From: Candidatus Onthoplasma faecipullorum
GTDB lineage: Bacteria; Bacillota; Clostridia; Christensenellales; UBA1242
DNA length: 64,000 nt
Assembly: GCA_019120295.1 (NCBI GenBank)
Contig: DWVI01000004.1
Span: 102,201 to 166,200 of the forward strand
Reading direction: 5' to 3'
Shown here: positions 902 to 64,000 of the stretch, one piece after another
Position numbering within the stretch: the stretch's first letter is position 1
Layout: every line of letters starts with the position of its first letter
Position numbers and translations under genes: made by a program
Notes under the pieces: model-generated
What the model was told of the DNA's origin: nothing
What the model saw: only the letters and a program-made list of their open reading frames with translations
Databases searched by the model: none

Positions 902-2222
<1,321 letters not shown>

Positions 2223-3103: not shown

Positions 3104-4258
3104 ATGAAAAAGATAATAACATTTAGTTTAGTTTTAATTTTAATCTTTGGAATATTTTTAATTTCAAGCAATGTAACGAGCGCTTACGCAAGTTCAAGTT
3201 TTGAGAGTAGCGTGGTTCACAAGTCAAGCGTACTAATTGAAAAAAATTCAGGCAAGATTTTATACGACAACAATTCTAGCGAACAACTACCAATAGCAAG
3301 TGTTACAAAACTTATGACAATTCTTTTAACCCTTGAAAAAATTGACGCTGGGGAAATTAGTTTAACAGATAAAGTGCATATAAGTGAAAATGCGAGTGGT
3401 ATGGGTGGAAGTCAAATATTCATTGATGCAAACCTAGATTATGAACTCGGCGAACTTTTAAAATCGGTAATTGTTGCAAGTGCAAATGACTCAAGTGTTG
3501 CCCTTGCTGAATATATTGCTGGAAGTGAAAGTAATTTTGTTAAAATGATGAACGAGAGAGCAAAAGAACTTAATTTGAAAAACACAAATTATGTGAATTG
3601 CACAGGTCTTCCTGCACCAGACGGCTATTCATGCGCGTATGACCAAGCGATTATTCTAAGCCACGTTTTGAATTATGACACTTACCACACATATTCTTCA
3701 ATTTGGCTAGAAGATTTTGTTCACCCAGATGGACGTACAACTCAAATGACAAACACAAACCGCTTATCACGTTTCTATGATGGTTGCATGGGCGGTAAAA
3801 CTGGCTCAACTAATCAAGCAAAATATTGCTTAGCAGTTGGTGCAAAACGCGGTGATATGGAACTCATTTCAGTGGTGCTTGGAGCAGATAATAGTAAGGA
3901 AAGATTTAAACTTGCAAGCGACTTATTAGATTATGGTTTTAATAATTTTGAATCAAAAACAATCTTTGACAATAATTCATTAAATGGAATGACAATTAGA
4001 ATAAAAGGTATGGATAGAGTAACACACCTTAAAGCAGAACGCAATTACACACTTGTAACGGACAAAAACGAACAAGTTAACGTTTCACTAAATTATAATT
4101 TACCTAATATGTTATCCGAAGTAAAAACCGACCAAGTGGTAGGAAATGTGGAAATTGTAATAGACGGAGTGGTGGTAGATAAAATCAACATATTATCCAC
4201 CGAAACACACAACCCAGCCACAATTTGGGACTACTTCAAAGAACTCACCAAAGCATAA
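3104..4258 (+). CDS. D-alanyl-D-alanine carboxypeptidase (S11, PBP5-type)
   Basis: Signal peptide plus the motifs SVTKLMT (SxxK), SANDS (SxN) and KTGST (KTG). GAGGT RBS before the ATG at 3104; the track start at 3077 is in frame upstream. Confidence 0.85.
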   Translation: MKKIITFSLVLILIFGIFLISSNVTSAYASSSFESSVVHKSSVLIEKNSGKILYDNNSSEQLPIASVTKLMTILLTLEKIDAGEISLTDKVHISENASGMGGSQIFIDANLDYELGELLKSVIVASANDSSVALAEYIAGSESNFVKMMNERAKELNLKNTNYVNCTGLPAPDGYSCAYDQAIILSHVLNYDTYHTYSSIWLEDFVHPDGRTTQMTNTNRLSRFYDGCMGGKTGSTNQAKYCLAVGAKRGDMELISVVLGADNSKERFKLASDLLDYGFNNFESKTIFDNNSLNGMTIRIKGMDRVTHLKAERNYTLVTDKNEQVNVSLNYNLPNMLSEVKTDQVVGNVEIVIDGVVVDKINILSTETHNPATIWDYFKELTKA

Positions 4259-5626: not shown

Positions 5627-6150
5627 GCGTGCCGACATCTCGGCTTTGTAATCGTTTTGCTTGTCGCAAAACTTCATTTGTGCCGAATGTCGGCACGTAT
5701 CCCACTGCGTGATATTCATCACTTGTGGGAGCCCTTGTAATTTTGCTTAAAATACTTTAGCTATTGCTAGGTTGCTTATTTCACGGCGCAACCGTTAGTC
5801 CTTTGCTCGGTTGCTCCTTAATTCCCACTGCGTACCTTACGGCACTCGTGGGAGCCCTGATGAACCCCATTTCGACTATGTCTTATGGGGACCCCTGTTT
5901 TAATCGACGTTGTAATCGTTTTGCTTATCGCAAAACTTCATTTGTGCCGAATGTCGGCACTTTTATGAAGGACAACCGCAGGTTTTCCTTCATGGCTTCT
6001 TTTCCTAATAGGTTTTGATTGAATGATTTTTATATGAGTCGAATAATGGGTACCCTACAAATGTTGGATAACACGCAGTAGGGAAAAGGAGTGGTCGACC
6101 AAAAGGTCTATATTCGAGCTAGCAAATTGACAATGGGTCGTACCACGACG
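5627..6150. ncRNA. ORF-free, G+C-enriched, hairpin-dense spacer between the two tRNAs; candidate structured RNA(s) or tRNA-associated element, strand unresolved
   Basis: Contains two copies of a 51 nt module (5646-5696 and 5910-5960, 1 mismatch). Hairpin families occur at 5701-5734, 5824-5857 and 5863-5895, and inverted at 6048-6083. The track ORFs here overlap tRNAs and hairpins and look spurious. Confidence 0.45.
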
Positions 6151-11878: not shown

Positions 11879-13960
11879 ATGCAAGAGAAGATTTACAAAA
11901 CAAAAATTGGTGAAAGAGATGTAAGTGTTGAAATTGGTAAGTACTGTATGCAAGCAAGCGGACATTGTATTGTCCGTTGTGGTGAAACTGTTGTGATGGT
12001 CAACACTGTTATGTCTAAGGCTCCACGTCCAGGTATGGATTTCTTTCCATTAAGCGTGGATTATGAAGAAAAGATGTATAGCGTGGGTAAAATCCCAGGC
12101 GGTTGGAAAAGGCGCGAAGGTCGCCCAGCAGACTCTGCAATTTTAAAATCAAGATTGATTGATAGACCACTTCGCCCACTTTTCCCAAAAGGTTTTTATA
12201 ATGATGTAACAATAGTTGCAACACCTTTATCAGTGGAACAAGATGTTAGCCCAGAACCACTTGCTATGCTTGGTTCTTCAATAGCACTTTCTATTAGTGA
12301 AATACCATTCGAAGGCCCAACTGGAACGGTTAAAGTTGGCATGGTTGACGGCAAATTCATTATTAACCCAACCGAAGCAGAGAGCGAAAAAAGTGTTATG
12401 GACGTAACTGTTTCAGGCACGAAAGATGCAGTTATGATGGTTGAAGCGGGAGCAAAAGAAGTTAGCGAAAAAGAGATGTTGGACGCTATAATGTTTGCTC
12501 ACGAAGAGATTAAAAAACAAGTTGCTTTCCAAGAAGAAATTGTTAAAGATTTAGGTGTTGAAAAAGCACACATTGATTTTGAAACAATTCCAGAAGAAAT
12601 TGATAAAGCGGTTAGAGAGTATGCAAATGATAAAATGGATAAACTTCTTGAAATCTATGATAGGCATGTTAGAAACGACCTAGAAGACCAATTAGACCAA
12701 GAAGTGAACGAGCATTTTACAGAAATTTATCCAGACGAATTAAAATTTGTTAGCCTTGTGCTATACAATATGAAAAAAGAAAAAGTTCGCCATAAAATTT
12801 TGTTTGAAGGCATTCGCCCAGACGGAAGAAAAACAAACGAAATTCGCCCTATTTGGTGTGAAGTCGGTCTTCTTCCAAGAGTGCATGGTTCAGGCGTGTT
12901 CACACGTGGTGAAACGCAAGTTTTGTCTACTTGCACACTTGGTATGCTTTCAGACGCGCAAGAATTGGAAGGTCTAGACGGAGAAGAAGAAAAGCGTTAT
13001 ATGCACCAATACAATATGCCGGGTTACACAACAGGCGAAGCAAAACCTTTGCGTTCAGCAGGAAGGCGTGAAATTGGTCATGGAGCCCTTGCAGAACGTG
13101 CACTAGAACCAGTTATTCCAAGCGAACAAGAATTCCCTTATGCTATCCGTGTGGTTAGTGACGTATTGAGTTCAAACGGTTCAACTTCAATGGCTTCAAC
13201 CTGCGGTAGCACATTGGCTTTAATGGACGCAGGCGTTCCAATCAGTTCACCAGTTGCAGGCGTTGCAATGGGGCTAATGAAAGATAAAGAAACAGGCAAA
13301 GTTGCAGTTTTAACAGACATTCAAGGGCTTGAAGACTTCTTCGGTGATATGGACTTTAAAGTAACAGGCACTGAAAAGGGAATAACCGCAATTCAAATGG
13401 ATATAAAAATTCACGGAATTGATAGAGAAATTTTAGAAACAGCGCTAGAACAAGCGCGCCTTGGTAGGCTTGAAATTTTAAAGAAAATGCTTGAAGTAAT
13501 TCCTGCACCAAGAAAAGAACTTTCAAAATACGCACCAAAGATTGTAACCTTTAAAATTGACCCAGACAAAATTCGTGAAGTTATTGGTAGTGGCGGTAAG
13601 GTTATCAACCAAATTATTGACGCAACAGGCGTTAAAATTGACATTGAAGATAATGGCGACGTGTTTGTCTCTTCAACAGATAGTGAAATGATTGAAAAAG
13701 CTCGCAAAATGATTGAAACAATTGCAACCGACTTTGAACTTAATTGTGAATACACAGGCACAGTTGTTCGCACCACTCAGTTCGGTGCATTTGTTGAAGT
13801 TGCACCAGGCAAGGAAGGAATGATACACATCAGTAAACTAAGCAAAGAGCGCGTTGAAAAAGTTGAAGATGTTGTTAATGTTGGCGACAAGGTGCTTGTT
13901 AAAACAATAAAAATTGACGAGCGCGGTCGCGTTGATATGAAATTAATTCAAAAATTATAA
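11879..13960 (+). CDS. pnp: Polyribonucleotide nucleotidyltransferase (PNPase)
   Basis: 693 aa with two RNase PH-like domains, a KH domain (GSGGKVINQI) and a C-terminal S1 domain (GTVVRTTQFGAFVEV). AAGGAG RBS. Confidence 0.95.
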   Translation: MQEKIYKTKIGERDVSVEIGKYCMQASGHCIVRCGETVVMVNTVMSKAPRPGMDFFPLSVDYEEKMYSVGKIPGGWKRREGRPADSAILKSRLIDRPLRPLFPKGFYNDVTIVATPLSVEQDVSPEPLAMLGSSIALSISEIPFEGPTGTVKVGMVDGKFIINPTEAESEKSVMDVTVSGTKDAVMMVEAGAKEVSEKEMLDAIMFAHEEIKKQVAFQEEIVKDLGVEKAHIDFETIPEEIDKAVREYANDKMDKLLEIYDRHVRNDLEDQLDQEVNEHFTEIYPDELKFVSLVLYNMKKEKVRHKILFEGIRPDGRKTNEIRPIWCEVGLLPRVHGSGVFTRGETQVLSTCTLGMLSDAQELEGLDGEEEKRYMHQYNMPGYTTGEAKPLRSAGRREIGHGALAERALEPVIPSEQEFPYAIRVVSDVLSSNGSTSMASTCGSTLALMDAGVPISSPVAGVAMGLMKDKETGKVAVLTDIQGLEDFFGDMDFKVTGTEKGITAIQMDIKIHGIDREILETALEQARLGRLEILKKMLEVIPAPRKELSKYAPKIVTFKIDPDKIREVIGSGGKVINQIIDATGVKIDIEDNGDVFVSSTDSEMIEKARKMIETIATDFELNCEYTGTVVRTTQFGAFVEVAPGKEGMIHISKLSKERVEKVEDVVNVGDKVLVKTIKIDERGRVDMKLIQKL

Positions 13961-13961
13961 A

Positions 13962-13986
13962 AATCAGCACATGCTGATTTTTTTGT
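13962..13986 (+). terminator. pnp terminator
   Basis: ATCAGC-acat-GCTGAT followed by TTTTTTT. Confidence 0.7.
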
Positions 13987-34439: not shown

Positions 34440-34454
34440 TTTGTACAAATATAT

Positions 34455-34726
34455 GCTTCCGTGGTGTAATGGATAGCACACGCAATACATCTGTGCGTTT
34501 TAATCGTTTACTCGAAACTCGTAAACTTCATTTATGCTTGATGTATTGCGTAACCCCACTTCGACATTGTCTTGTGGGGACCACAGAATAACCCCACTGC
34601 AACATTCGTTTTGTGGGGACCCCAGAATAACCCCACTGCAACATTCGTTTTGTGGGGACCCCGTGAACCATTGCGCTAAAAGATTTGCACGATTTCGAAT
34701 TATTCTAACATTTTAATATCAAATAT
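34455..34726 (+). ncRNA. Candidate structured RNA/element: a copy of tRNA-Arg positions 1-26 fused to about 245 nt of hairpin modules, directly upstream of the intact tRNA-Arg
   Basis: 34455-34480 is identical to 34727-34752. 34481-34550 is homologous to 5629-5696 with compensated stems. Three hairpins of the CCCCAC..GTGGGGACC(CC) family follow, and GAACCATT (34665-34672) matches the tRNA anticodon-stem 3' side. Confidence 0.5.
34585..34662 (+). repeat. Perfect tandem duplication of a 39 nt hairpin unit
   Basis: agaataaccccactgcaacattcgttttgtggggacccc occurs twice, back to back. Confidence 0.9.
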
Positions 34727-34801
34727 GCTTCCGTGGTGTAATGGATAGCACAATGGTCTTCGGAACCATTAGTTCGGGTTCAAATCCTGACGGAAGCACC
34801 A
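34727..34801 (+). tRNA. tRNA-Arg (anticodon UCG), CCA encoded
   Basis: Manual cloverleaf: acceptor GCTTCCG/CGGAAGC, anticodon arm ATGGT-CTTCGGA-ACCAT, T-arm TCGGG-TTCAAAT-CCTGA, 75 nt. Confidence 0.88.
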
Positions 34802-36224: not shown

Positions 36225-36339
36225 AATTTTATTTTTTACAAATATTGTGATTTTATTTTGCGAAAATTTAGTGATTTTGTTTAATTTCGTAGGTTTATGC
36301 GAAATTAAACACTTTTAATTAATTTCGTATTTTTATATG

Positions 36340-36547
36340 AAATAAACGTAAAATTTTGCGCCAGTAAAATTTTTACATCACATAGTTTATATTATCGGAA
36401 GGATTTGTCTGGAAGCGCTCGAGCAAAGCGCGAGTGTTTACAAGCAAATCCGATGTTAATTCTAACGTGATGCCACAATTCATTGTGGTGAATATGCAAA
36501 TAAACATGAAATTTTGCGTTAGTAAAATTTTACATCACAGTTTATAG
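36340..36547 (+). ncRNA. Structured element copy A: a core of about 110 nt flanked by two direct copies (about 50 nt each) of an AT-hairpin box
   Basis: The core (36386-36497) has GGATTTG...CAAATCC enclosing an 8x8 internal loop and a hairpin, then CCAC-loop-GTGG. The boxes at 36340-36391 and 36498-36547 contain AAATTTTGC-nnnn-GTAAAATTT followed by ACATCACA. An inverted homolog lies at 41541-41696. Confidence 0.5.
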
Positions 36548-36612
36548 TTTTATATGCTTTTTAATTATTTTGTGTTTGTAATCAAAAAATTTTTGTTTTC
36601 ATAAATAGTATT

Positions 36613-37479
36613 ATGATATATCTAGTGAGTAAATTTCCGTGTGTGATAGGCGGAAAAGAAAATTTTAAAATTGATAAAAATGTGAGATATTGTGTGGAAA
36701 ATGTGGATAACACACCACAAATTGTCTATCCAATGGATAAAAGTTTACCATTTTCAATATCTTTTATGGATATTTTAAACAATTTGCCACATGAAAACGC
36801 GCATAAAGTGGAAATTGGGCACAATCAGTACATATTTTTAAATTCAAATAGGTATTTAACGCCAAGTTTTACCGAGTTTAAATATTTAAATTTTGATGTG
36901 AATGTAACCTTATCGCAAACGTTAAATATACAAGTGAATGGCGAAACTTTATGCAATAATGATGTTGAAAATATTACATATTCACATTTTGAAGTGTTTA
37001 ATTCATATTGCGTGATTTTCTTTGAAGGAAAAAGAAATTATTTTGTTATAATTGACGGAAAAAATTTAAAATGTGCAGATTACTACGACGAAATCAACAC
37101 AGAAAAGGACGAAATGTATTTTTTAACTCGCGAGTGTGATAGTTTAAATCATGGCAAAGTGCGACACATAAAAAATAAAACTTACGAAGAATATAATGTA
37201 TATTTAGATAATGAAGAGATAAACATTTCAAATAAATTAAAGCACTTGGTGTTTTTAGATTGTTTAAAGGTTGGAAATTTAAATTATTGCAATTCAATGC
37301 TCTCCGATAGCATCAAACAAGAAGATAGTAAAAACATAAAAAACTTTTTTCCTGAATTTGACGATTATTATCCGATTGAAGATAATACCGTGGTGTTATT
37401 TAAAAAAAATGCCCTTTCGGGCAAATTTAGGTTTGAAATAAATTTAGATAAAATAGAAAACATAATTCATTTAGATTAA
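36613..37479 (+). CDS. Hypothetical protein
   Basis: 288 aa, no family recognised. It lies 65 nt downstream of element copy A. Confidence 0.5.
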   Translation: MIYLVSKFPCVIGGKENFKIDKNVRYCVENVDNTPQIVYPMDKSLPFSISFMDILNNLPHENAHKVEIGHNQYIFLNSNRYLTPSFTEFKYLNFDVNVTLSQTLNIQVNGETLCNNDVENITYSHFEVFNSYCVIFFEGKRNYFVIIDGKNLKCADYYDEINTEKDEMYFLTRECDSLNHGKVRHIKNKTYEEYNVYLDNEEINISNKLKHLVFLDCLKVGNLNYCNSMLSDSIKQEDSKNIKNFFPEFDDYYPIEDNTVVLFKKNALSGKFRFEINLDKIENIIHLD

Positions 37480-40692: not shown

Positions 40693-40730
40693 AAAATCTT
40701 ACGTGTTTTGTAAGATTTTTTTTATTTATT
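40693..40730. terminator. Bidirectional terminator
   Basis: ATCTTAC-gtgtttt-GTAAGAT flanked by A and T runs. Confidence 0.55.
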
Positions 40731-41487
40731 TTGAAAATAGCATTAGTTCTCTTAATTTTCCATATTTATTAATTTCTTTTAAATTTTTCTTATTTATTAT
40801 TCCGTGCGCTTTGATTAAAATTTCGTTATTAAAATTGAATATGTCTTTTGTGCAAACTCTACCAAGTAAGAAATCGGCATTTTGAGTTTCTTTTTTCTCG
40901 TCGATTATAACGGCGTTTGTTTTTTCATTTGTTTCAACTTTTTCTATAATTTCTTCTTGTTTTGTTTGATAGTCAATAGGCATAACATTTGCGATTGTTG
41001 GTTTAGGTGTTTTAAAAATTTTAGGTGTTTTATTTGGAACGAATTTATGTACATTAACGCTACCTAACTGGTCATAGAAAATAATGGTATTTTTTCCACT
41101 TGATGCTAGGTTTTTAATTTCTAGTGTTGTACCGTTATCAAGGACAAATTTTTCTGTTAAAAATTTCTCTGATAAACTTATCTCTTTAACCACACCTAAA
41201 AATTCGCCTTTAATTGAATAGGCTTTAAAATTTAGTGGGGCAGGGTTTAACGCACTTTCTTCCACTTTTAGGCTTACCGCTTGATTGTTTTTCACCGTAA
41301 TTGCATTTTTGCCAATGTGATAAATATTTTTAGTTGGAAGTCTTAATCGTGTGTCATTTTCACCAATTAGTTCTATCTCCATAAGTTTTTTTAGTTTTTT
41401 ATCAAAATAAAGCTTGTCCACCACGCCAAGCAGTTCACCTTCATACAATGACAAAACTGAAATATTCAACAATTCACTTAAATTCAT
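40726..41487 (-). CDS. PRC-barrel domain protein (YlmC/YmxH-like N-terminus, duplicated)
   Basis: MNLSELLNISVLSLYEGELLGVVDKLYFD matches the YlmC/YmxH PRC-barrel start, and there is a second similar segment around GEFLGVVKEISL. Confidence 0.6.
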   Translation of the reverse strand: MNLSELLNISVLSLYEGELLGVVDKLYFDKKLKKLMEIELIGENDTRLRLPTKNIYHIGKNAITVKNNQAVSLKVEESALNPAPLNFKAYSIKGEFLGVVKEISLSEKFLTEKFVLDNGTTLEIKNLASSGKNTIIFYDQLGSVNVHKFVPNKTPKIFKTPKPTIANVMPIDYQTKQEEIIEKVETNEKTNAVIIDEKKETQNADFLLGRVCTKDIFNFNNEILIKAHGIINKKNLKEINKYGKLRELMLFSK

Positions 41488-41540
41488 AATTACTCCTAAA
41501 ATAATGTATGTTTTAAATTTTCAATTATTACATATATAGA

Positions 41541-41696
41541 CTAGTGATGTTAAAATTTTACTAACGCAAAATTTTATATTTGTTTCACAAACTCCACGTT
41601 TCACGTGGCATCACGCTTGAATTATCTCGGATTTGCTTGTAACCACACCGCTAACGCTTGTGTGCTTCCAGACAAATCCTTTAAGATAATATAACA
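41541..41696 (-). ncRNA. Structured element copy B (inverted homolog of 36386-36547)
   Basis: The reverse complement aligns end to end with copy A. The single-stranded parts and the box TTTTGCGTTAGTAAAATTTT are near-identical, while both hairpins differ with paired changes. It lies 56 nt upstream of the PRC-barrel gene. Confidence 0.5.
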
Positions 41697-41736
41697 TATT
41701 TGAATTTATTTTTTTAATGCGGTAAATTTGCTAAAT

Positions 41737-41777
41737 TGTCGAATTTAATTGATTTATATATTATTTTTGGGTATAAT
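41737..41777 (+). promoter_or_regulatory. SigA-type promoter preceded by an exact Spo0A-box heptamer
   Basis: TGTCGAA (41737-41743), then TTGATT (41749-41754), a 17 nt spacer, and TATAAT (41772-41777). Confidence 0.5.
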
Positions 41778-41817
41778 AAATACAAATAAATTTAACTTTA
41801 AATTTATAAGGGGTAAT

Positions 41818-50280: not shown

Positions 50281-50316
50281 AACAAAAAATCTTGTTAAAT
50301 ACAAGATTTTTTTATT
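50281..50316. terminator. Bidirectional terminator
   Basis: AATCTTGT-taaat-ACAAGATT flanked by A and T runs. Confidence 0.6.
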
Positions 50317-56086: not shown

Positions 56087-57187
56087 ATGGAAAATAAAAT
56101 ATGTGTATATGCAATAGCAAAAAATGAAGAAAAATTTGTGGATAGGTGGTTCAATTCAGTTAAAGAAGCGGACTATATTGTGGTGTTAGACACGGGTAGC
56201 ACGGATAACACGGTTAGCGAACTGAGAGACCTAGGAGTAAAAGTTGAAACGAAAAAATATAATAAATTTCGTTTTGACGAGGCGAGAAATGATAGTCTAA
56301 AACTAGTGCCTGTTGACGCCAACATATTAGTTTGTGTGGATATAGACGAAATGTTTGAACCAGGTTGGAGTAAAATTCTAAAAGAAAACTGGACTGAAAA
56401 AGTGGGGCGTGCTAGGTACCGTTACACGTGGAATTTTAACGAAGACGGAAGCGAAGGCATTGTTTTTATGGCTGATAAAATTCATAGAAACGGTCTTTTT
56501 AAGTGGACGCATCCAGTGCATGAAGTGTTATCACCTATTCAAAATGTTGAGTACGACACATTATATCTACCCAATATTCAGTTAAATCACAGGGCGGATA
56601 ACAAAAAGTCTAGAAGCAATTATTTGCCACTACTTGAATTAAGCGTCAAAGAAGACCCAAGCGACGATAGAAATATGCACTACCTAGGTCGTGAATATAT
56701 GTTTCACGGTGAATACAATAAAGCAATTAAAACATTGAAACGCCATTTAAAATTACCGCGTGCCACTTGGAACGAAGAGCGCGCTGCAAGTATGCGTTAT
56801 ATTGCCGATTGTTATGGTTACCTTGGTAAATATAAAAAGCAAGAAGAATATTTGCTTCGTGCCATTTTGGAAGCAAACCATGTTCGCGAACCTTACTATC
56901 AACTTGCAGTTTTCTACTATAATAGGAAAGACTATTTAAAAAGTGCAGTCTATTTTAATGAGATGTTTAAGATAACAAATAGGGAATTAAATTATATGTC
57001 TTCTCCAGCATGTTGGAGCGCCACACCGTATGATTTGCTCTCGCTTTGCTATTATTATTTAGGCGAATATAAAAAGGCAATTATTGCAGTTAACGAAGCA
57101 ATAAGTTTAAGTGACGAGCCAAGGCTTAAATCAAATCGAGATTTTTATTTAAACAAGTTAACGGAAAATTTTGGCAATAAAAAATAA
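56087..57187 (+). CDS. Family 2 glycosyltransferase with C-terminal TPR repeats
   Basis: ICVYAIAKNEEKFVDRW...VVLDTGSTDNT...CVDIDE form a GT2 core with a DxD-like motif, followed by TPR-like YLGREYMFHGEYNKAI repeats. The track start at 56018 lies inside the upstream terminator. Confidence 0.7.
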   Translation: MENKICVYAIAKNEEKFVDRWFNSVKEADYIVVLDTGSTDNTVSELRDLGVKVETKKYNKFRFDEARNDSLKLVPVDANILVCVDIDEMFEPGWSKILKENWTEKVGRARYRYTWNFNEDGSEGIVFMADKIHRNGLFKWTHPVHEVLSPIQNVEYDTLYLPNIQLNHRADNKKSRSNYLPLLELSVKEDPSDDRNMHYLGREYMFHGEYNKAIKTLKRHLKLPRATWNEERAASMRYIADCYGYLGKYKKQEEYLLRAILEANHVREPYYQLAVFYYNRKDYLKSAVYFNEMFKITNRELNYMSSPACWSATPYDLLSLCYYYLGEYKKAIIAVNEAISLSDEPRLKSNRDFYLNKLTENFGNKK

Positions 57188-57259
57188 TCGTAATTTTGTA
57201 ATGTTATCATAGGTTTGTCAGTAAGATGATAAACCTTATTTTTATAAGGAAATAACCTG

Positions 57260-57292
57260 TAGGTTCGTCTTATTGACGAGCCTATTTTTTTT
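57260..57292 (+). terminator. Strong terminator preceding the phage-like module
   Basis: TAGGTTCGTC-ttatt-GACGAGCCTA followed by TTTTTTTT. Confidence 0.7.
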
Positions 57293-57310
57293 GTTAAAAG
57301 GAGGGAAGTT

Positions 57311-57493
57311 ATGGTTGAAGAAGCAGCTACAACAAAGAGAAAATCTATTTGTATTGGCGTCTATGTTTCTCCTGATATGCACAACAAGCTTAAGAAATAC
57401 TCAAAAGAAAGCGAAACAGTGCACGGCGTTAAATACACAATCAGCGACGTAGTTAGGCTGGCTTTGAAAAATTTTTTTGATAAGAACAAATAG
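57311..57493 (+). CDS. Small ribbon-helix-helix-like protein
   Basis: 60 aa. KSICIGVYVSPDMHNKL...VVRLALKNFF fits a beta-strand plus two helices. Confidence 0.45.
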   Translation: MVEEAATTKRKSICIGVYVSPDMHNKLKKYSKESETVHGVKYTISDVVRLALKNFFDKNK

Positions 57494-57503
57494 GAGGTAT
57501 GTT

Positions 57504-57803
57504 ATGAGAAAACAACTTAAAGAAGTCGTTAAATGCGTTACAGAAGAATTGAGAACAAATTACTCAGCACGAACAAATGATAATGAACTCATTCTTGGAG
57601 TTATGAGAAGACTTGGAGTTGACACTAACATACCATTTTCAGAGCTTATACATAGCGGCAACTTGCCAACAAGCTTTGAATCAATTACAAGAGCACGAAG
57701 AAAGGTGCAAGCACAGAATCCTATATTAAAAGATAAACCTACAGCAGATTTAAGGCAAGAGCAGGAGGAAGTGTATCGAAAGTTTGCTAAAGAAAATTTA
57801 TAA
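57504..57803 (+). CDS. Hypothetical phage protein
   Basis: GGAGG RBS before the ATG at 57504. The track start at 57477 would overlap the previous gene. Confidence 0.5.
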   Translation: MRKQLKEVVKCVTEELRTNYSARTNDNELILGVMRRLGVDTNIPFSELIHSGNLPTSFESITRARRKVQAQNPILKDKPTADLRQEQEEVYRKFAKENL

Positions 57804-57814
57804 GGGAGGATACA

Positions 57815-58066
57815 ATGATAATTTACGGTCTTTACTACTATACCCCTAATGCACAAGGGTTTATTGCAAAAAGAACGGCAATTGAAAGGGAAGAAGAATT
57901 TACCAAAATTAAAGACTTACTGAAAAATTTAGCTGAATCAGAATATGGAGCTGAATATTCAGAAGAACAACTAAGATTTGACTTATATATTCCTTGCGAA
58001 GATTGTTGCTATGATGGGCAACATTACTGGGTTGAACTTATTGATATTAACACGAATGAAATCTAA
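57815..58066 (+). CDS. Hypothetical phage protein
   Basis: 83 aa, GGGAGG RBS. Confidence 0.5.
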   Translation: MIIYGLYYYTPNAQGFIAKRTAIEREEEFTKIKDLLKNLAESEYGAEYSEEQLRFDLYIPCEDCCYDGQHYWVELIDINTNEI

Positions 58067-58090
58067 CAAGTTTTAATTAGGAGGTAAAAT

Positions 58091-58750
58091 ATGAATAAAT
58101 TTGAAAGATTAAAAGAAATGAGCACACTTGATGCAAAGAAGCTTATTGAAAGTTTGGTTGGCGAAGAAGCTGCTAAAAAGTTTTTTGAAGAAGAAAGAAA
58201 AACTATTTCAATAAGTGAAGTTGAAGTGGGCTCTTTTATTGTTTATGGTGGTTTGGAATGGGTAGTTTTAGACAAAACAACCAAAGGTGTGAAAGTATTA
58301 TCAAAACATAGGCTCTATAACAGAGCGTTTGACACGGATAGCCACAATAATTGGGCAGCATCTACTTTACGAAATGAATTAAATAATTTTAATAAGTGTG
58401 GTTGGTGCTGTGCTTACGAAAACACATCGCAAATAAACAAAAAAGACCTTGTTGAATTTGAAAGAGACTTAACTACTGATGATGGAATGACAGATTACGG
58501 AAAATGCAGAGATTATATATCGTTGTTGACTTGTGAAGAGTATCGCAAATATAGGAAATTGATACCGCTTGCAGATGACTGGTGTTGGACTATAACTGCA
58601 GATAGCTTGGTTTACGATTCTTACGTTCGCAGTGTCTACTCGGGCGGTGTCCTGGGCGGCAACGATGCGTATAGCGGTAACAGCGGCGTGCGTCCGCTTT
58701 GTATTCTGAAATCTGAAATCGAGGTAGAAGTATGCGACGAGAAAGTGTAA
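58091..58750 (+). CDS. Phage protein with a DUF6273/DUF1566-like C-terminal region (WxW...GVRP motif)
   Basis: 219 aa. DDWCWTITADS...GNSGVRPLCIL resembles the WWLRS...GVRP pattern. The last roughly 30 codons form a G+C-rich run of NNC codons. Confidence 0.5.
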   Translation: MNKFERLKEMSTLDAKKLIESLVGEEAAKKFFEEERKTISISEVEVGSFIVYGGLEWVVLDKTTKGVKVLSKHRLYNRAFDTDSHNNWAASTLRNELNNFNKCGWCCAYENTSQINKKDLVEFERDLTTDDGMTDYGKCRDYISLLTCEEYRKYRKLIPLADDWCWTITADSLVYDSYVRSVYSGGVLGGNDAYSGNSGVRPLCILKSEIEVEVCDEKV

Positions 58751-59106
58751 TTTTAGCAATATCAAATGACAAATACGAGTTACCAACAATGCAATTTGAA
58801 TCTACAAGAGAAATGTCTAAAACACTTGGTATATCAATGAAGCATTGTAACTCAATTCTGTCAAAACAAACAGTTTTTAGAGAACTAAATTGCAGGTTTA
58901 TAAGAGTCTATTTAGACGAAGAAAATTCAACAAAAGGAGGTAGTGATATGTCTCAAAATTGCAAAAAAGGAATAATTTCAAAGCTACTTAACAGCACTAA
59001 GGCAGAGGTTGAAAAATTCTTTAAAAGTATTTCTGAGGAAGAACGTGAAAGTTATGTTTCTGCACTATGGAACGCTTATCACAAACTTTCATATAAAGGA
59101 GCTTAA
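58732..59106 (+). CDS. Hypothetical phage protein
   Basis: 124 aa. An internal AAAGGAGG plus ATG near 58948 could mark an alternative start. Confidence 0.4.
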   Translation: MRRESVILAISNDKYELPTMQFESTREMSKTLGISMKHCNSILSKQTVFRELNCRFIRVYLDEENSTKGGSDMSQNCKKGIISKLLNSTKAEVEKFFKSISEEERESYVSALWNAYHKLSYKGA

Positions 59107-59107
59107 G

Positions 59108-59761
59108 ATGCTTGAGAAGATAAAGTTAAAACACAACACTCCTGAATGGCTGCAGTTTAGAAAAACTGGCATCGGAGGATCTGATGCAGCTGCAATACTT
59201 GGTATTAGTCCATTTAAAACAAATATAGAAGTTTGGGAAGAAAAAGTTGGAATAAAAGAGCCTGAAGATATTTCAGATAAGCCTCAAGTTGAATATGGAA
59301 AGAAATCAGAAGAATTGTTATTAGAATTATTTGCACTTGATTTTCCTCAATTTGAAGTTAAAGCAAATAAAAATGTTGTTTATAAAAGAGGTTTTATGTT
59401 TGCTTCCTTAGACGGAGAACTAACCGACAAAACAACTGGAGAAGAGGGAATATATGAGGGCAAAACAACCGAAATTCACAATCACAATTTGCTATCAAAA
59501 TGGACCAAACAAATACCTGATTATTATTACACTCAAATATTACACTATTTACTTGTTACAGATAGAAAATTTGCTTGTTTAAAAGCACAAATAAAACTTA
59601 TAGGACAAGATGACAACGTTGAAATAATAACGAGACATTATATGTTCTACAGAAAAGACTTAATTGAAGATTTAAAATATCTTTATTTAAAAGAAAAAGA
59701 GTTTTGGGAGTTTGTGGAGAAAAAACAAAGACCACCACTCATACTTCCAAGATTAGATTAA
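59108..59761 (+). CDS. YqaJ-type viral recombinase exonuclease
   Basis: AAAGGAG RBS and ATG at 59108. The N-terminus NTPEWLQFRKTGIGGSDAAAILGISPFKT is diagnostic of the YqaJ family. Confidence 0.85.
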   Translation: MLEKIKLKHNTPEWLQFRKTGIGGSDAAAILGISPFKTNIEVWEEKVGIKEPEDISDKPQVEYGKKSEELLLELFALDFPQFEVKANKNVVYKRGFMFASLDGELTDKTTGEEGIYEGKTTEIHNHNLLSKWTKQIPDYYYTQILHYLLVTDRKFACLKAQIKLIGQDDNVEIITRHYMFYRKDLIEDLKYLYLKEKEFWEFVEKKQRPPLILPRLD

Positions 59762-59779
59762 AAATGGAGGATAAAAAAT

Positions 59780-60583
59780 ATGTCAGAATTAGAACTTATT
59801 TTGAAAACACCAGTAGAGGAATTGATTCCAAAAATGCTTGCTTGGAATAATTCAGAACTTTTAGCTCAGGTAGAGGAAAAACTGAAACACTATGAAAACG
59901 TCAATTATGACGATTCTACTATTGATATTGCAAAAAAAGATAGGGCTCAATTAAACGCATTTTGCAAAGCGTTAAATGATGAGCGTATCCGAATAGGAAA
60001 GGTATATAGCTCGCCTTACGACAAGTTTAAATCAGAAGTGGATGGCGTTATAAATAGAGTTAAAGAAGTTTCTGAAAAAATATCTACACAGGTGCAGGCT
60101 TACGAATTAAAAAAACAAGAAGAAAAACAGCAAGCAGTTATTGAATATTTTAAGGAAGCTATAGGAGAATTTTCAGGCTTAATTCCTTATGAAAAAGTTC
60201 ATCAAGCAAGATGGCTTAACGTAAGCGTCAGTATGAAATCAATTAAAGCTGATATAGACACAATTGTTTCAAATGCAAGAGCTGCAGTGGTTGCTATAGA
60301 AGCTTTAAAGTCAGAAGACGAAGAAACACTTAAAGCGTTTTATTTCAGGACTTTAAACCTCTCTGAAGCTCTTATGGAGAATGAGAGATTAAAACAAGAG
60401 AGAACAAAAATTGCTGAATTAAAACCAAAGCAAGAGGAAGAAAAACCTGAAGAAAAAGCAAATGCAACAAATATTCAAATAGTCAAGTTCCAAGTAGAGG
60501 GAACAATAGAACAATTAAAACAATTACAGCACTTTTTAAGAGAAAATCAAATAAAATTTACAGCCATAAAGGAGGGAAAATAA
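59780..60583 (+). CDS. DUF1351-family phage protein
   Basis: 267 aa, located between the exonuclease and RecT as is usual. The N-terminal pattern is LILKTPVEELIPKMLAWNN. Confidence 0.6.
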   Translation: MSELELILKTPVEELIPKMLAWNNSELLAQVEEKLKHYENVNYDDSTIDIAKKDRAQLNAFCKALNDERIRIGKVYSSPYDKFKSEVDGVINRVKEVSEKISTQVQAYELKKQEEKQQAVIEYFKEAIGEFSGLIPYEKVHQARWLNVSVSMKSIKADIDTIVSNARAAVVAIEALKSEDEETLKAFYFRTLNLSEALMENERLKQERTKIAELKPKQEEEKPEEKANATNIQIVKFQVEGTIEQLKQLQHFLRENQIKFTAIKEGK

Positions 60584-61519
60584 ATGGCAAATAGTATAAC
60601 AACAACAAATCAAAGAAGTTTATCAACAAATCAACCTAAATTTTCAGTATTTATGAGCCAAGAAAATATTAAAAATTTAGTTCAACAAGCGGTAGGGCAA
60701 AACGCACAAAGCTTTACTACAGCAATCATATCTGCAGTAAGCAACAACCCCGAATTGCAGAAATGTAATCAATCTTCAATTTTGGCAGCAGCCCTGCAGG
60801 GCGAGGCTTTAAAATTAAGTCCAAGTCCACAGTTAGGGCAATATTATATGGTGCCTTTTAACAAAAAAGATAAACAAGGAAACATTATATCAACTTCAGC
60901 TCAATTTATTTTGGGTGCTAAAGGTTATAAGCAACTTGCTATGAGGTCAGGTCAATATCTTGATATTGATGTTTTAGAAATCAAAGAGGGCGAATATAAA
61001 GGGCGTGATAAATTAACAGGGAAGCAATTATTTGAATTTATTGCCGATGACGATGAGAGAGAAGCTAAACCAACAATCGGTTATATGGCTTATTTTGAAT
61101 TGCTTAATGGCTTTAGAAAAACTGTTTATTGGACTAAGAACAAAATGATAAAACACGCAGATACCTATTCTCCAGCATTTAGTGCTGACAAATATGATGA
61201 TTATATCAATGGCAAAATACCACAAAAAGAACTCTATAAATATAGCAGTTTTTGGTATAAAAACTTTACGGAAATGGCTTACAAAACACTTTTAAGATAC
61301 TTAATCTCTCAATGGGGAGTTATGAGTATTGAAATGCAAAAAGCTATTGATATTGACAATTCTGTTATCAATGAAAATGGAGAACCAAGCTATGTCGAGT
61401 TTGACGGCGGTGTAGAGGCTAATCAATCTGAAGTGGAACAAGAGCCTGTTGAAATTACTCCTGAAGAGGCGGAAGAGTTTGACTTCTTTGCAGAAGAGAA
61501 AAAAGGGAGTGAGGAATAA
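60584..61519 (+). CDS. recT: RecT single-strand annealing protein
   Basis: 311 aa with the ILGAKGYKQLAMRSGQY core and an acidic tail. Confidence 0.85.
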   Translation: MANSITTTNQRSLSTNQPKFSVFMSQENIKNLVQQAVGQNAQSFTTAIISAVSNNPELQKCNQSSILAAALQGEALKLSPSPQLGQYYMVPFNKKDKQGNIISTSAQFILGAKGYKQLAMRSGQYLDIDVLEIKEGEYKGRDKLTGKQLFEFIADDDEREAKPTIGYMAYFELLNGFRKTVYWTKNKMIKHADTYSPAFSADKYDDYINGKIPQKELYKYSSFWYKNFTEMAYKTLLRYLISQWGVMSIEMQKAIDIDNSVINENGEPSYVEFDGGVEANQSEVEQEPVEITPEEAEEFDFFAEEKKGSEE

Positions 61520-61521
61520 AT

Positions 61522-61938
61522 ATGGTATTTGAAATCGTTGGTGCTCCAGTCGGCAAGAGACGACCAAAATTCTCAACTATACACGGTTACGCACAAGCTA
61601 TAAAACCTAAGGAAGATGCAATTTATGAAAACCTTGTAAAGTTAAGTTTTCAATCAAATAAACCACAGGAATACAGCTTGTTTGAAAAACCTATAAAAAT
61701 CAAAATAGAAGCATATTTTGCGATACCTAAATCATTTTCAAAAAAGAAAATCAATATGGCTGTTGAGGGTGTTATAAACCCTCAAACAAAGCCTGATGCA
61801 GATAATATAGCAAAGATTATATGTGATGCCTTAAATAATGTTGCTTATAAAGACGACACACAAATAATAGAGCTAACGGTTGTAAAAAGATATGCTTTAG
61901 AACCAAAGGTTAAAGTTACTCTAAATGAGTTTATTTAG
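61522..61938 (+). CDS. rusA: RusA-family Holliday junction resolvase
   Basis: 138 aa with PVGKRRPKFS and KPDADNIAKIICDALNNVAYKDDTQI. Confidence 0.85.
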   Translation: MVFEIVGAPVGKRRPKFSTIHGYAQAIKPKEDAIYENLVKLSFQSNKPQEYSLFEKPIKIKIEAYFAIPKSFSKKKINMAVEGVINPQTKPDADNIAKIICDALNNVAYKDDTQIIELTVVKRYALEPKVKVTLNEFI

Positions 61939-61947
61939 GAGGATAAA

Positions 61948-62808
61948 ATGGCAAGGAAAAGAATGATTGACCCTGCAATATGGAACTCGGAAGATTTTTC
62001 AGAATTATCTGAGTTTGCTCAGCTTGTTTGGATAGGGCTTTTCTCTCAGGCGGATGATCAGGGCAGAGGAAAAGCTAAGCCCGCCTATTTAAAGTCAATT
62101 CTTTTCCCTTACAGCGAAGATGCAAAGCTGGTTAAAAAGGTTGATTTTGCATTAAATGAGATAGCAAAAAATATGTCTGTTGTCTTTTATCAAATTGATA
62201 ACAATGAATATTATCAGCTTGAAAATTGGGCTAAGTGGCAAAAGGTAGACAAACCACAAGCAAGCAAAATTACACCTTATTCAGATAAAGCGAAGATTAT
62301 TCGTAAACCATTCGGGGAACATTCGGCGAATAGTAGTCGAAAGATAAGCGAACAATCGTCAACTAATCAACAAACACTCTCGCCTAATAAGAATAAGAAC
62401 AAGAATGAAATAGAACAAGAATATAAAGAGAACGAGAATAAACAGGCGTGCGTGTGTGATGATTTATTAAATAAATTTAGTTTTAATGAATTATTGCAAG
62501 TTTGCGAATCTGAAAGTCCAGTTTTAATTAAACGCCATAGGGAAGATCCAAACGGAGACTATAAGTTAGGCTTAATTTATGACGAGATTGCAAAGTTTCA
62601 CACTTTAGACGAAGTTAGAACTTTAATAAAGCACGCAAACAAAACTTATGTTGTGCAGCCTAAATATAACACACTTGATTTGTGTTGGGTGCTTAACAAT
62701 TGGCAGTCAGTTGAAAGTGCAAGTGAAATAACAGTGCAACATCAGCAATCTCAGCAAACAAAAGAAAAAGTGTCAGAAATGGAGGCAAGAGTATGGAAGA
62801 ACAAATAA
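61948..62808 (+). CDS. Phage replisome organizer (DnaD-like N-terminal domain)
   Basis: RMIDPAIWNSEDFSELSEFAQLVWIGLFSQADDQGRG is the characteristic N-terminus. Confidence 0.75.
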   Translation: MARKRMIDPAIWNSEDFSELSEFAQLVWIGLFSQADDQGRGKAKPAYLKSILFPYSEDAKLVKKVDFALNEIAKNMSVVFYQIDNNEYYQLENWAKWQKVDKPQASKITPYSDKAKIIRKPFGEHSANSSRKISEQSSTNQQTLSPNKNKNKNEIEQEYKENENKQACVCDDLLNKFSFNELLQVCESESPVLIKRHREDPNGDYKLGLIYDEIAKFHTLDEVRTLIKHANKTYVVQPKYNTLDLCWVLNNWQSVESASEITVQHQQSQQTKEKVSEMEARVWKNK

Positions 62809-63686
62809 ATTCTCTAAGCAGATTTGACCATAGCAGAGATTACAGCGAAGAAGAGGAATTGGTTTGCAGGAAAAAATTCTTTGAGAATTACAAGCTCAAG
62901 CAGGACGAGATATTGACAGCAAACAGTGAGCTGATTTGTTCAAAATGTCGAAACAAAAGATATTTTCAAAAAAATGATTTTGTAGTTATCTGTAATTGCA
63001 AATGTCAAACTGAAGCTATAAAACAGGCTGAAGAAGAAAGAAAAGCTAAAGAACGTATGAGAAGTTTAGAAAGGCTAAAGGAAATGAGTTTGTTGGGTAA
63101 AAAATACGAAGATGCAAACTTTGAAAACTTAGACCTTAATCGCCCTAAAGACTTTTTAAAAGCAGTAGAAAGATGTAAAAAATATTGCGAAAAGTGGAAC
63201 GAGGTTAAGAATCAGGGCTTAGGAATTTACTTATATGGAGACGTTGGAACAGGGAAAAGCTTACTGACTGCTTGTATAGGGAATTATTTACTTTCAAAAT
63301 TTGTAACAGTGCTATTTACAAACTTCTTTGAGATTGCAAAGCAAATAAAGAAAACCTTTTCAGACTATTCAATGACAGAAAGTGCATTTATAGATAGACT
63401 TACACAAGTTGATCTTCTGATAATTGACGATATAGGAACAGAAATTGTAGTCAAAAATGGAGAAAAAACTTGGATACAAGACAAAATCTACGATGTAATA
63501 AACAGCAGATACGTAAATCTTAAACCAACAATATTTTCAAGCAATGAAAGCCTTGTGGAGCTTGTTGAAAAATGTGGCTTAATGAAAAAGACTGTGGATC
63601 GAATTGCTGCAATGTCAACCGCAAAAATAGAGTTGAGAGGAAGTAGCTATAGATTGACAGAACAAACAAAAAATTCAATTTTTTAA
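62793..63686 (+). CDS. DnaC/IstB-like AAA+ helicase loader
   Basis: Walker A GDVGTGKS, Walker B LLIIDDIG, and an N-terminal Cys-cluster. Confidence 0.8.
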   Translation: MEEQINSLSRFDHSRDYSEEEELVCRKKFFENYKLKQDEILTANSELICSKCRNKRYFQKNDFVVICNCKCQTEAIKQAEEERKAKERMRSLERLKEMSLLGKKYEDANFENLDLNRPKDFLKAVERCKKYCEKWNEVKNQGLGIYLYGDVGTGKSLLTACIGNYLLSKFVTVLFTNFFEIAKQIKKTFSDYSMTESAFIDRLTQVDLLIIDDIGTEIVVKNGEKTWIQDKIYDVINSRYVNLKPTIFSSNESLVELVEKCGLMKKTVDRIAAMSTAKIELRGSSYRLTEQTKNSIF

Positions 63687-63699
63687 TTTGGAGGATAAA

Positions 63700-64000
63700 A
63701 TGATAAACAAAAATAATAAGGCGTTTGTTGCTGGAGAAATTATAACGGAACCAACGGAATATGAGTGCTGTGGAGAAAAGTTTTATTCATTTGTTATTGC
63801 TTCGGCAAGAGAAAGTGGAGTTAAGGATGAAATTCCTGTAAATATTTCAGCTTACTTATTGAAAGACGCAAAACAAGGAGATAAAGTGGCTATTACAGGA
63901 CAAATAAGAACTTATAACAAAATGCAAAACGAAAAAAACAAACTGATTATAGTTTTCTTCGGGCAGGTTGTTGAAAGTTATACAGAAGATTCTAATCAGG
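63700..64000 (+). CDS. OB-fold SSB-like phage protein, partial (open at the window end)
   Basis: Not in the track. GGAGG RBS and ATG at 63700. My translation MINKNNKAFVAGEIITEPTEYECCGEKFYSF...VAITGQIRTYN has no stop codon up to 64000. Confidence 0.5.
   Translation, partial: MINKNNKAFVAGEIITEPTEYECCGEKFYSFVIASARESGVKDEIPVNISAYLLKDAKQGDKVAITGQIRTYNKMQNEKNKLIIVFFGQVVESYTEDSNQ

Follow-up and report, generated by a model that had tools for sequence, protein, structure and literature searches.

The group A repeats of the Bacillus cereus group (bcr1-bcr3) include bcr1, an element of ~155 bp with 5-bp direct repeats (TTTAT), which is transcribed, unevenly distributed between related strains and folded into a double-stem structure that is kept by compensatory changes (PMC3184786, PMC6542083). 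Classical bacterial miniature inverted-repeat transposable elements (MITEs) like Correia/NEMIS, RUP or ERIC are defined by terminal inverted repeats matching those of a parent insertion sequence (PMC3184786). Further interspersed repeats are SPRITE with its terminator-like hairpin and BOX, which is modular and whose modules can stand alone (PMC3184786), and REP/BIME is a 20-40-nt G+C-rich palindrome that is often tagged GTAG or CGTC (PMC3733652). In this work we analyzed a repeat in a 64,000-nt stretch of Candidatus Onthoplasma faecipullorum (contig DWVI01000004.1, positions 102,201 to 166,200, in the following the window, to which all plain coordinates refer), which is bacterial chromosome with genes for TsaD, a P-type ATPase and rubrerythrin. 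The genus Onthoplasma (family UBA1242) is reported to have reduced genomes of <1 Mb (PMC12306168).

A first-pass annotation of the window had proposed a structured element at 36340-36547, which was placed upstream of a hypothetical gene and between two copies of an AT-hairpin box. Our analysis revealed that this element is an insertion-polymorphic, non-coding and structured repeat with a strong preference for ATAT(T/G) sites. It represents a new repeat family, known so far only from Ca. Onthoplasma faecipullorum and two close relatives, and probably it is a non-autonomous small mobile repeat that was inserted at several unrelated sites, one truncated older copy included.

Occupied and empty insertion sites

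Besides the annotated copy (copy A), the window contains the second copy which the first-pass annotation had presumed (copy B). Repeat detection tied the boxes to 41544-41587 on the opposite strand, and copy B emerged from an alignment of copy A with the reverse-complemented region 41480-41800. Comparison with relatives and other collections showed that the element is conserved outside the source genome, with one full copy in a metagenome-assembled genome of an uncultured Clostridia bacterium (L006) and another one in a metagenome contig (L063). In both, the core of ~90 nt is identical to copy A and the flanks are unrelated.

Evidence for insertion comes from orthologous loci of close relatives, at which the element is precisely missing. 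The copy-A locus is occupied in a 99% strain (L112) and empty in two relatives (L110, 75% protein identity; L111, 86%), which have kept the divergent gene pair and a native hairpin next to it. The copy-B locus is empty in L113/L114 (89%) as well as in L115-L118 (71%), and the same holds for the L006 locus in L126/L127 (92% RecO identity). Empty sites carry the target pentamer once. The copy-B junctions are clean (empty site in L113, with a slash at the insertion point, ATGATATATT/TGTAAT; occupied site ATGTTATATT[ATC...GTCT]ATATATGTAAT), and at the L006 locus the empty sequence CAATATT/ATCTGTG corresponds to CA-ATATT[ATCGG...GTTT]ATATT-ATTTGTA in the occupied state. All insertion sites are AT-rich and unrelated to each other, with ATAT(T/G/A) at both borders of the element. 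In L006 and L063 this is ATATT on either side, and at copy B it is ATATT and ATATA; in general, the pentamer 5' of the left end is ATATT in all copies, and the right pentamers vary (ATATT/ATATA/ATAGT). Two short-read contigs, L001 and L112, break off within the element, as is typical of repeats, which explains the breaks in the short-read assemblies of this organism at the copy-A position.

The copy-A locus is a composite. Two boxes are indeed present, at 36350-36373 with a GCCA loop and at 36508-36531 with a GTTA loop, each followed by ACATCAC, but they are not equivalent flanks as had been supposed: the element itself has the downstream box as its 3' domain, and the upstream one belongs to a second, 5'-truncated copy that abuts the full one. 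This solo module and the 3' domain of the L006 element share 95% identity (blastn), and the module was recovered by the nhmmer profile (positions 118-174, E = 2.8e-11) and by the covariance model (positions 84-145, E = 5e-4). To the left of the composite stands ...TTTTTATATG and to its right ATAGTTTT-ATATG-C, where empty sites have ...TAGTTATATATG once. Compared to strain L112, copy A has a 2-nt deletion near its 3' end; the sequence of L112 at this position is CAC-ATAGTTT-ATAGTTT-TATATGC, and the empty sites have a single ATATG. From this arrangement we infer a history in which a first element would have been inserted at ATATG, a deletion between two TATG microhomologies would then have removed its 5' 100 nt, a second element would have entered the pentamer that was restored at the earlier copy's right end, and slippage would finally have duplicated 7 nt (ATAGTTT). 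An alternative is a copy of greater than unit length that originated from a circular or tandem template.

The native hairpin of this locus (36278-36311, plus strand) consists of 14 bp and a T-run just left of the copy-A insertion; it lies outside the element and is retained in L110 with a compensatory change from CG to CC/GG. At the end of contig L111 (positions 1-115), a 38-nt unit containing one arm of this hairpin is present three times at 1.5x coverage, which may be an assembly artefact.

The gene neighbourhoods bear directly on a possible role as cis-regulatory leader or riboswitch for the downstream gene. Copy A is located in a divergent intergenic region between a 139-aa gene and the gene of a 288-aa hypothetical protein (36613..37479), whose ATG begins 65 nt after the downstream box, as already noted in the first-pass annotation, and 69 nt beyond the end of the element. 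Copy B also lies in a divergent intergenic region, between a PRC-barrel gene and a 1,500-aa gene; the PRC-barrel protein has 100% identity to one from Ca. Onthoplasma faecipullorum. Both copies are thus upstream of and co-oriented with one gene each, and this position, the complex structure and the terminator-like hairpin between core and gene would all suit a leader. However, the divergent layout makes "upstream" true on either strand, and the two downstream genes, coding for the 288-aa hypothetical protein and the PRC-barrel protein, are unrelated. Furthermore, the L006 element is located antisense between a 52-aa gene and recO inside an era-recO gene string, with its end 8 nt from the recO start codon, and the L063 element, on the strand opposite to a holin-like gene, extends over the stop codon of that gene; neither of them has a co-oriented downstream gene. 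A consistent gene partner is absent across the four full copies, and orthologues of both window genes occur in relatives without the element. A scan of the whole window with Rfam 15 at gathering thresholds revealed only 4 tRNAs, and the best E-value of a permissive scan of 36250-36650 was 3.4, which agrees with the earlier statement that none of the common riboswitch cores fits. In addition, no alternative pairing such as an antiterminator emerged from the folds. In our view, a leader specific for the hypothetical gene is already refuted by the empty orthologous sites, and we regard any leader or riboswitch function of this kind as extremely improbable. This removes a false candidate from the list of riboswitches and leaders.

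Two of the loci outside the window show additional features. In relatives with 79% RecO identity (L128-L130, positions 2346-2444), the intergenic region that holds the L006 element contains a different, G+C-rich insert of 99 nt upstream of recO, which is identical in three samples and has a minimum free energy of -38.8 kcal/mol; it has no credible match in Rfam, with a single weak one (E = 0.021) far below the family threshold. Contig L063 carries Nextera adapter sequence (TCGTCGGCAGCGTCAGATGTGTATAAGAGACAG) at both ends (1-45 and 3200-3249), and its terminal open reading frame starts with the adapter-derived peptide ...VGSEMCIRDR, while the element lies inside genuine sequence.

Anatomy and predicted fold of the unit

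The consensus unit has a length of 152 nt (5'-ATCGGAAGG...CACATAGTTT-3', ATC…GTTT) and is non-coding; its left end begins with ATCGGAAGGATTTG and its 3' end can also be written as ACATCACATAGTTT. The G+C content is 44% in the first 100 nt and 19% in the last 52 nt, compared to 29% in the surrounding 2 kb, in line with the G+C-enriched core described previously. Terminal inverted repeats were not detected, as the best local alignment of the left end to the reverse-complemented right end scores 5 at a shuffle mean of 5.6. Copies A and B have no conserved open reading frame in common. A minus-strand open reading frame of 42-44 aa in the A-type copies was rejected as coding sequence, since it is interrupted by stops in copy B. 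The number of matches expected in shuffles is 0 for the 51-nt core, and the relaxed box pattern matches the window 7 times versus 1.75 expected, a count which no shuffle reached. The AT box itself is a near-perfect palindrome (AAAATTTTGC-N4-GTAAAATTTT) with three occurrences in the window, each within the 3' domain of a full or truncated copy.

Two independent fold predictions agree on a structured element, in line with the first-pass annotation, whose outer helix of GGATTTG (36401-36407) and CAAATCC (36445-36451), inner hairpin (36417-36441) and second hairpin were all recovered at or near their described positions. The symmetric 8x8 internal loop had to be revised: according to the minimum-energy fold and RNAalifold it is partly paired, and a U.G pair and a 2-bp helix (UG/CA) leave loops of 1x1 and 2x2. 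RNAalifold predicts a rod (P1-P2) and, 3' of it, a four-way junction with GUGAUG/CAUCAC as closing helix and with hairpin 2, P4 and P5 as arms (Table 1). Fold z-scores range from -5.0 to -6.7 (-5.9 for copy B, -6.5 for the L006 copy), and no shuffle folded as well.

Copies A and B do not differ at the ends of the rod, in the strands of the junction or in the AT hairpin. Pairing is kept in the inner helix (CGCUCG/CGAGUG in A, CACAC/GUGUG in B), in hairpin 2 (CCACAAU/AUUGUGG and CCACGU/ACGUGG) and in P4 (GUUUAU/AUAAAC and GUUUGU/ACAAAU). In an alignment of four sequences, 99.4% of the cells of 39 hand-drawn pairs are paired, compared to 35-52% if the partners are slid by 1-3 columns, and three double-sided changes were counted. 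RNAalifold independently arrived at the same architecture with 49 pairs, four of them compensatory between A and B: one in the rod (U-A to A-U), two in hairpin 2 and one in P4. The rod additionally has one G.U to A-U change in comparison to copy B, and another G.U to A-U change is found in P5 of L063. These sequence comparisons indicate that the predicted fold is kept by compensatory changes between two subfamilies. As the window loci and element-free relatives have 89-93% identity in their flanks and copy B is only ~82% identical to the A type, copy B did not diverge in place and derives from a different master copy. Therefore, the compensatory changes arose in the propagating element lineage. 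Several pairs are of the G.U type, and therefore the structural strand is the one that had been chosen in the first-pass annotation; it folds ~14 kcal/mol better than its complement (-51.4 versus -37.1 and -48.8 versus -34.3).

P5 has the shape of the real terminators of this genome with A-run, stem, tetraloop and T-run, but is weaker (-8 versus -11 to -15 kcal/mol). Weak covariance-model matches to the P5 part turned out to be terminators, at 40693-40719, 13958-13982, 50286-50310 and elsewhere. This resemblance, a strong, strand-specific and compensated fold, and a left end that always follows a -10-like (T)ATATT, so that a start could fall near GGAAGG, would be compatible with a multi-copy gene for a trans-acting small RNA that consists of the rod and the four-way junction as its functional form, ends at P5 and would have spread through duplication or as a passenger of mobile DNA, a reading that partly overlaps with a mobile repeat. 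Several observations argue against such a gene. It would lack a promoter of its own, as the sequences upstream of ATATT are unrelated among the copies and have no consistent -35 element. Conservation extends ~20 nt beyond the T-run of P5 (ACATCACATAGTTT), a tail that a terminated small RNA would not need and that the predicted P3 requires. Moreover, close relatives do without copies A and B, and P4 is degraded in copy A. Taken together, a small RNA gene seems unlikely to us, though not far-fetched.

The first-pass annotation had also considered the AT-hairpin box as an operator or part of a promoter, in which case the core would be incidental. The box is close to a perfect palindrome, occurs three times in the window and exceeds the expectation for its relaxed pattern, and for copy A as well as copy B, the TTTACA/TTAACA of the box is spaced 18 nt from a -10-like hexamer of the flank. 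On the other hand, the box is always associated with the core, as its 3' domain, and the corresponding promoters of relatives lack it. A -10 at the right spacing after the box is missing in L006 and L063, and the G.U to A-U change in L063 keeps the pairing of one strand and not the dyad symmetry of the DNA. The number of promoter-like matches at the copy-A locus (4) corresponds to that in shuffles (4.1 expected). As each of the four full copies has the box downstream of its core and only one has it upstream, the box cannot be the promoter or operator of the element, and we consider an independent role as palindromic operator or promoter part very improbable.

Some further candidates were rejected. 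A sigma-70 promoter inside or at the ends of the element was discarded, as there is no consistent -35/-10 pair across the copies. A dif/Xer-like interpretation of CATAG-TTTATA-TTATC is at odds with the position of two copies only 5 kb apart and with a right arm that is unconserved in the flanks. For a bridge-RNA-like function, comparison of the loop with ends and target yielded only 5-nt identities (GGAAG, GUUUA) and no covariation in copy B. To our knowledge, none of the -10 motifs of sporulation sigma factors and of the operators of CodY, Rex or the CRP/FNR type fits the box across the copies, and the internal loop does not appear to match the K-turn or sarcin-ricin consensus.

Table 1. Coordinates of the repeat copies, their flanking pentamers and the predicted structural parts in the window.
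Feature	Position	Strand	Remarks
Left target pentamer ATATG, copy-A locus	36335..36339	.	Occurs once in empty sites: L111 ...CGTAGTTATATATGTTTTTT, L110 ...TTTAATATGCTTTTT
Solo 3' module ("upstream box")	36340..36388	+	5'-truncated copy, last 49 nt: AAATAAAC...P5 hairpin (36350-36373)...ACATCACATAGTTT
ATATT between right end of solo module and left end of full copy	36389..36393	.	Read from sequence; right end-ATATT-left end junction
Full copy A	36394..36543	+	150 nt; covariance model 167 bits, E = 2e-41; nhmmer E = 2e-53
P1-P2 rod, copy A	36401..36451	+	GGAUUUGU/GCAAAUCC, UG/CA, inner helix with small GC-AAA-GC tip; predicted by minimum-energy fold and RNAalifold
3' domain, copy A	36467..36538	+	P3 closes four-way junction of hairpin 2, P4 and P5; predicted by RNAalifold
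P3	GUGAUG 36467-72 with CAUCAC 36533-38	+	Invariant, hence predicted only
Hairpin 2, CCACAAT/ATTGTGG	36473-36488	+	
P4	36489-36507	+	Degraded in copy A
P5, terminator-like AT hairpin	36508-36531	+	Loop GTTA
ATAGTTTT followed by ATATG (right target pentamer)	36544..36556	.	Probable slippage-type repeat of the last 7 nt of the element
Full copy B	41538..41687	-	Covariance model 147 bits, E = 4e-36; diverged subfamily, ~82% identical to A type (blastn versus L006)
Left flanking pentamer ATATT, copy B	41688..41692	-	From comparison with empty site in L113
Right flanking pentamer ATATA, copy B	41533..41537	-	One mismatch to ATATT

Searches for further copies and other features of the window

Collections were searched with a loop-anchored pattern (TCTGGAAG-N-TTACAAG-N-GTGATG(CC)). 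Among 185,579 species-representative genomes it matched 19 stretches, one of which is a true copy (L006), and in the metagenome collection one of 44 stretches was true (L063), most of the others being a single Ruminococcus coding sequence. None of the 45 stretches matched in viral contigs was true, and blastn gave no relevant match in the phage collection or, with a word size of 11, among 72,556 PLSDB plasmids. Further copies were neither detected by nhmmer in ~1 Mb of retrieved loci nor by the covariance model R1 with filters off in the window alone, and the element was not found in 19 kb of the same genome beyond the window ends.

The window contains several other repeats. The tRNA-Arg(TCG) region has its first 30 nt (ATATGCTTCCGTGGTGTAATGGATAGCACA) present a second time, at a distance of 272 nt upstream of the real gene (34452-34481 and 34724-34753). 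Between these repeats (34569-34665), a G+C-rich 39-nt unit (GTYTTGTGGGGACCMCAGAATAACCCCACTGCAACATTC) is present in two tandem copies and a partial third one, with no match in Rfam. This arrangement may be a small insertion or duplication that affects the tRNA 5' end. A 57-nt direct repeat of 95% identity (5640-5696 and 5904-5960, 264 nt apart) is located between the genes for tRNA-Glu and tRNA-Met. Long repeats with a periodicity of 9 nt at 1251-2063 correspond to a 3-residue repeat in a 435-aa protein without Pfam domain (open reading frame 902..2209, minus strand), whose gene adjoins a Peptidase_S55 (SpoIVB-like) gene in L125. The early region of a prophage extends over ~57000-64000 with genes for YqaJ exonuclease, RecT, RusA, a DnaC/IstB-like ATPase and SSB, followed by packaging genes. 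It continues in L119 to +10.9 kb, the same phage is present with different flanks in L120, and in L121/L124 it adjoins an rve-type integrase/transposase. The rve-type gene near the prophage in L121 and the element have no sequence in common according to nhmmer.

Proposed mobility of the repeat and comparison with known systems

How could such a small element spread? We assume that an enzyme encoded elsewhere acts in trans and moves the element into ATATT-like pentamers. This might happen either with a 5-bp target duplication or by recombination of a circular right end-ATATT-left end junction with a site containing ATATT. Selection in the propagating master copies would preserve the strand-specific fold, which might be recognised as a single-stranded DNA or RNA intermediate or might stabilise a transcript. 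Effects on neighbouring genes would then be by-products, and the weak terminator-like P5 may partly insulate them or attenuate read-through transcription.

Some points weigh against a mobile repeat or limit what can be concluded about it. With four full copies and one fragment the total number is low, and the ~83 kb of the source genome that were examined, with two full copies and a fragment, limit the estimate of the copy number. A mobilising gene or autonomous partner was not found; the pattern scans of genomes and metagenomes gave the short element only. The 5-nt repeat is imperfect at copy B (ATATT/ATATA), and the copy-A locus requires a history of several steps that is deduced and not directly observed. 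The copies effectively represent two sequence lineages, so that only a few independent changes stand behind the four compensatory pairs; templated repair in palindromes might produce the same pattern as selection for pairing, and the fold could matter at the level of RNA or of single-stranded DNA. Finally, a precise loss at three loci in relatives instead of a gain is formally possible, but would leave unexplained why the same sequence is present at unrelated loci.

A more specific possibility is that the fold itself is the mobility determinant of a repeat class without terminal inverted repeats, in which the element would propagate as folded single-stranded DNA or RNA or as a circular right end-ATATT-left end form. 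The enzyme acting on it would come from the host or a prophage and would be one without a known link to transposition so far. Copy A with its preserved right end-ATATT-left end junction, the 5'-truncated solo copy and the lack of terminal inverted repeats hint in this direction, but we consider this to be a long shot. If true, the element would share the unsolved mechanism of bcr1.

Regardless of the mechanism, the small mobile repeat proposed here is apparently active or was recently active in a genus with reduced genomes, where selfish DNA is expected to be scarce. Its insertions between divergent promoters and within the era-recO string may also change the expression of neighbouring genes.

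How does the element compare with the repeat classes mentioned above? With MITEs it has in common that it is small, non-coding, multi-copy, intergenic and insertion-polymorphic, with short flanking direct repeats and stable predicted RNA folds (PMC3184786). It differs from them in the lack of terminal inverted repeats, and the scans of genomes and metagenomes yielded no parent insertion sequence. Similar to the modules of BOX, the 3' module at 36340-36388 stands alone, and the terminator-like hairpin resembles SPRITE, but here the hairpin is one arm of a larger junction and weaker than real terminators, and both window copies are located between divergent genes. In contrast to REP/BIME, the unit has 152 nt and five helices and carries no GTAG/CGTC tag.

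Palindrome-associated elements derived from IS200/IS605 have similar subterminal hairpins at both ends and insert 3' of a fixed tetra- or pentanucleotide without target duplication. The fixed ATATT 5' of the left end and the strand-specific fold would suit this type; the left rod is unlike the right P5, and the variable right pentamers look more like a duplicated target. Riboswitches and leaders in Rfam are of similar size and complex structure, and two of the four copies share their 5' intergenic position; the element differs from them in the missing conserved gene association, the lack of an Rfam match and its absence from orthologous loci.

The strongest likeness is that to bcr1. Both are similar in size (~155 bp and 152 bp) and flanked by A/T-rich 5-bp direct repeats (TTTAT for bcr1, ATATT here), both vary in their distribution between close relatives and both have a multi-stem fold with compensatory changes. 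Differences concern the host, which is here an uncultured member of the Christensenellales from a genus with reportedly reduced genomes, and the architecture, as a rod and a four-way junction replace the two independent stem-loops of bcr1. Similarity in sequence was not detected, the blastn comparison with plasmids having given no relevant match. Judged by its published description, bcr1 appears to be the closest known kind and shares every tested property. The repeat family of Ca. Onthoplasma faecipullorum thus joins bcr1 as a second, apparently unrelated case of repeats with unsolved mobilisation, and a comparison of both could reveal common features.

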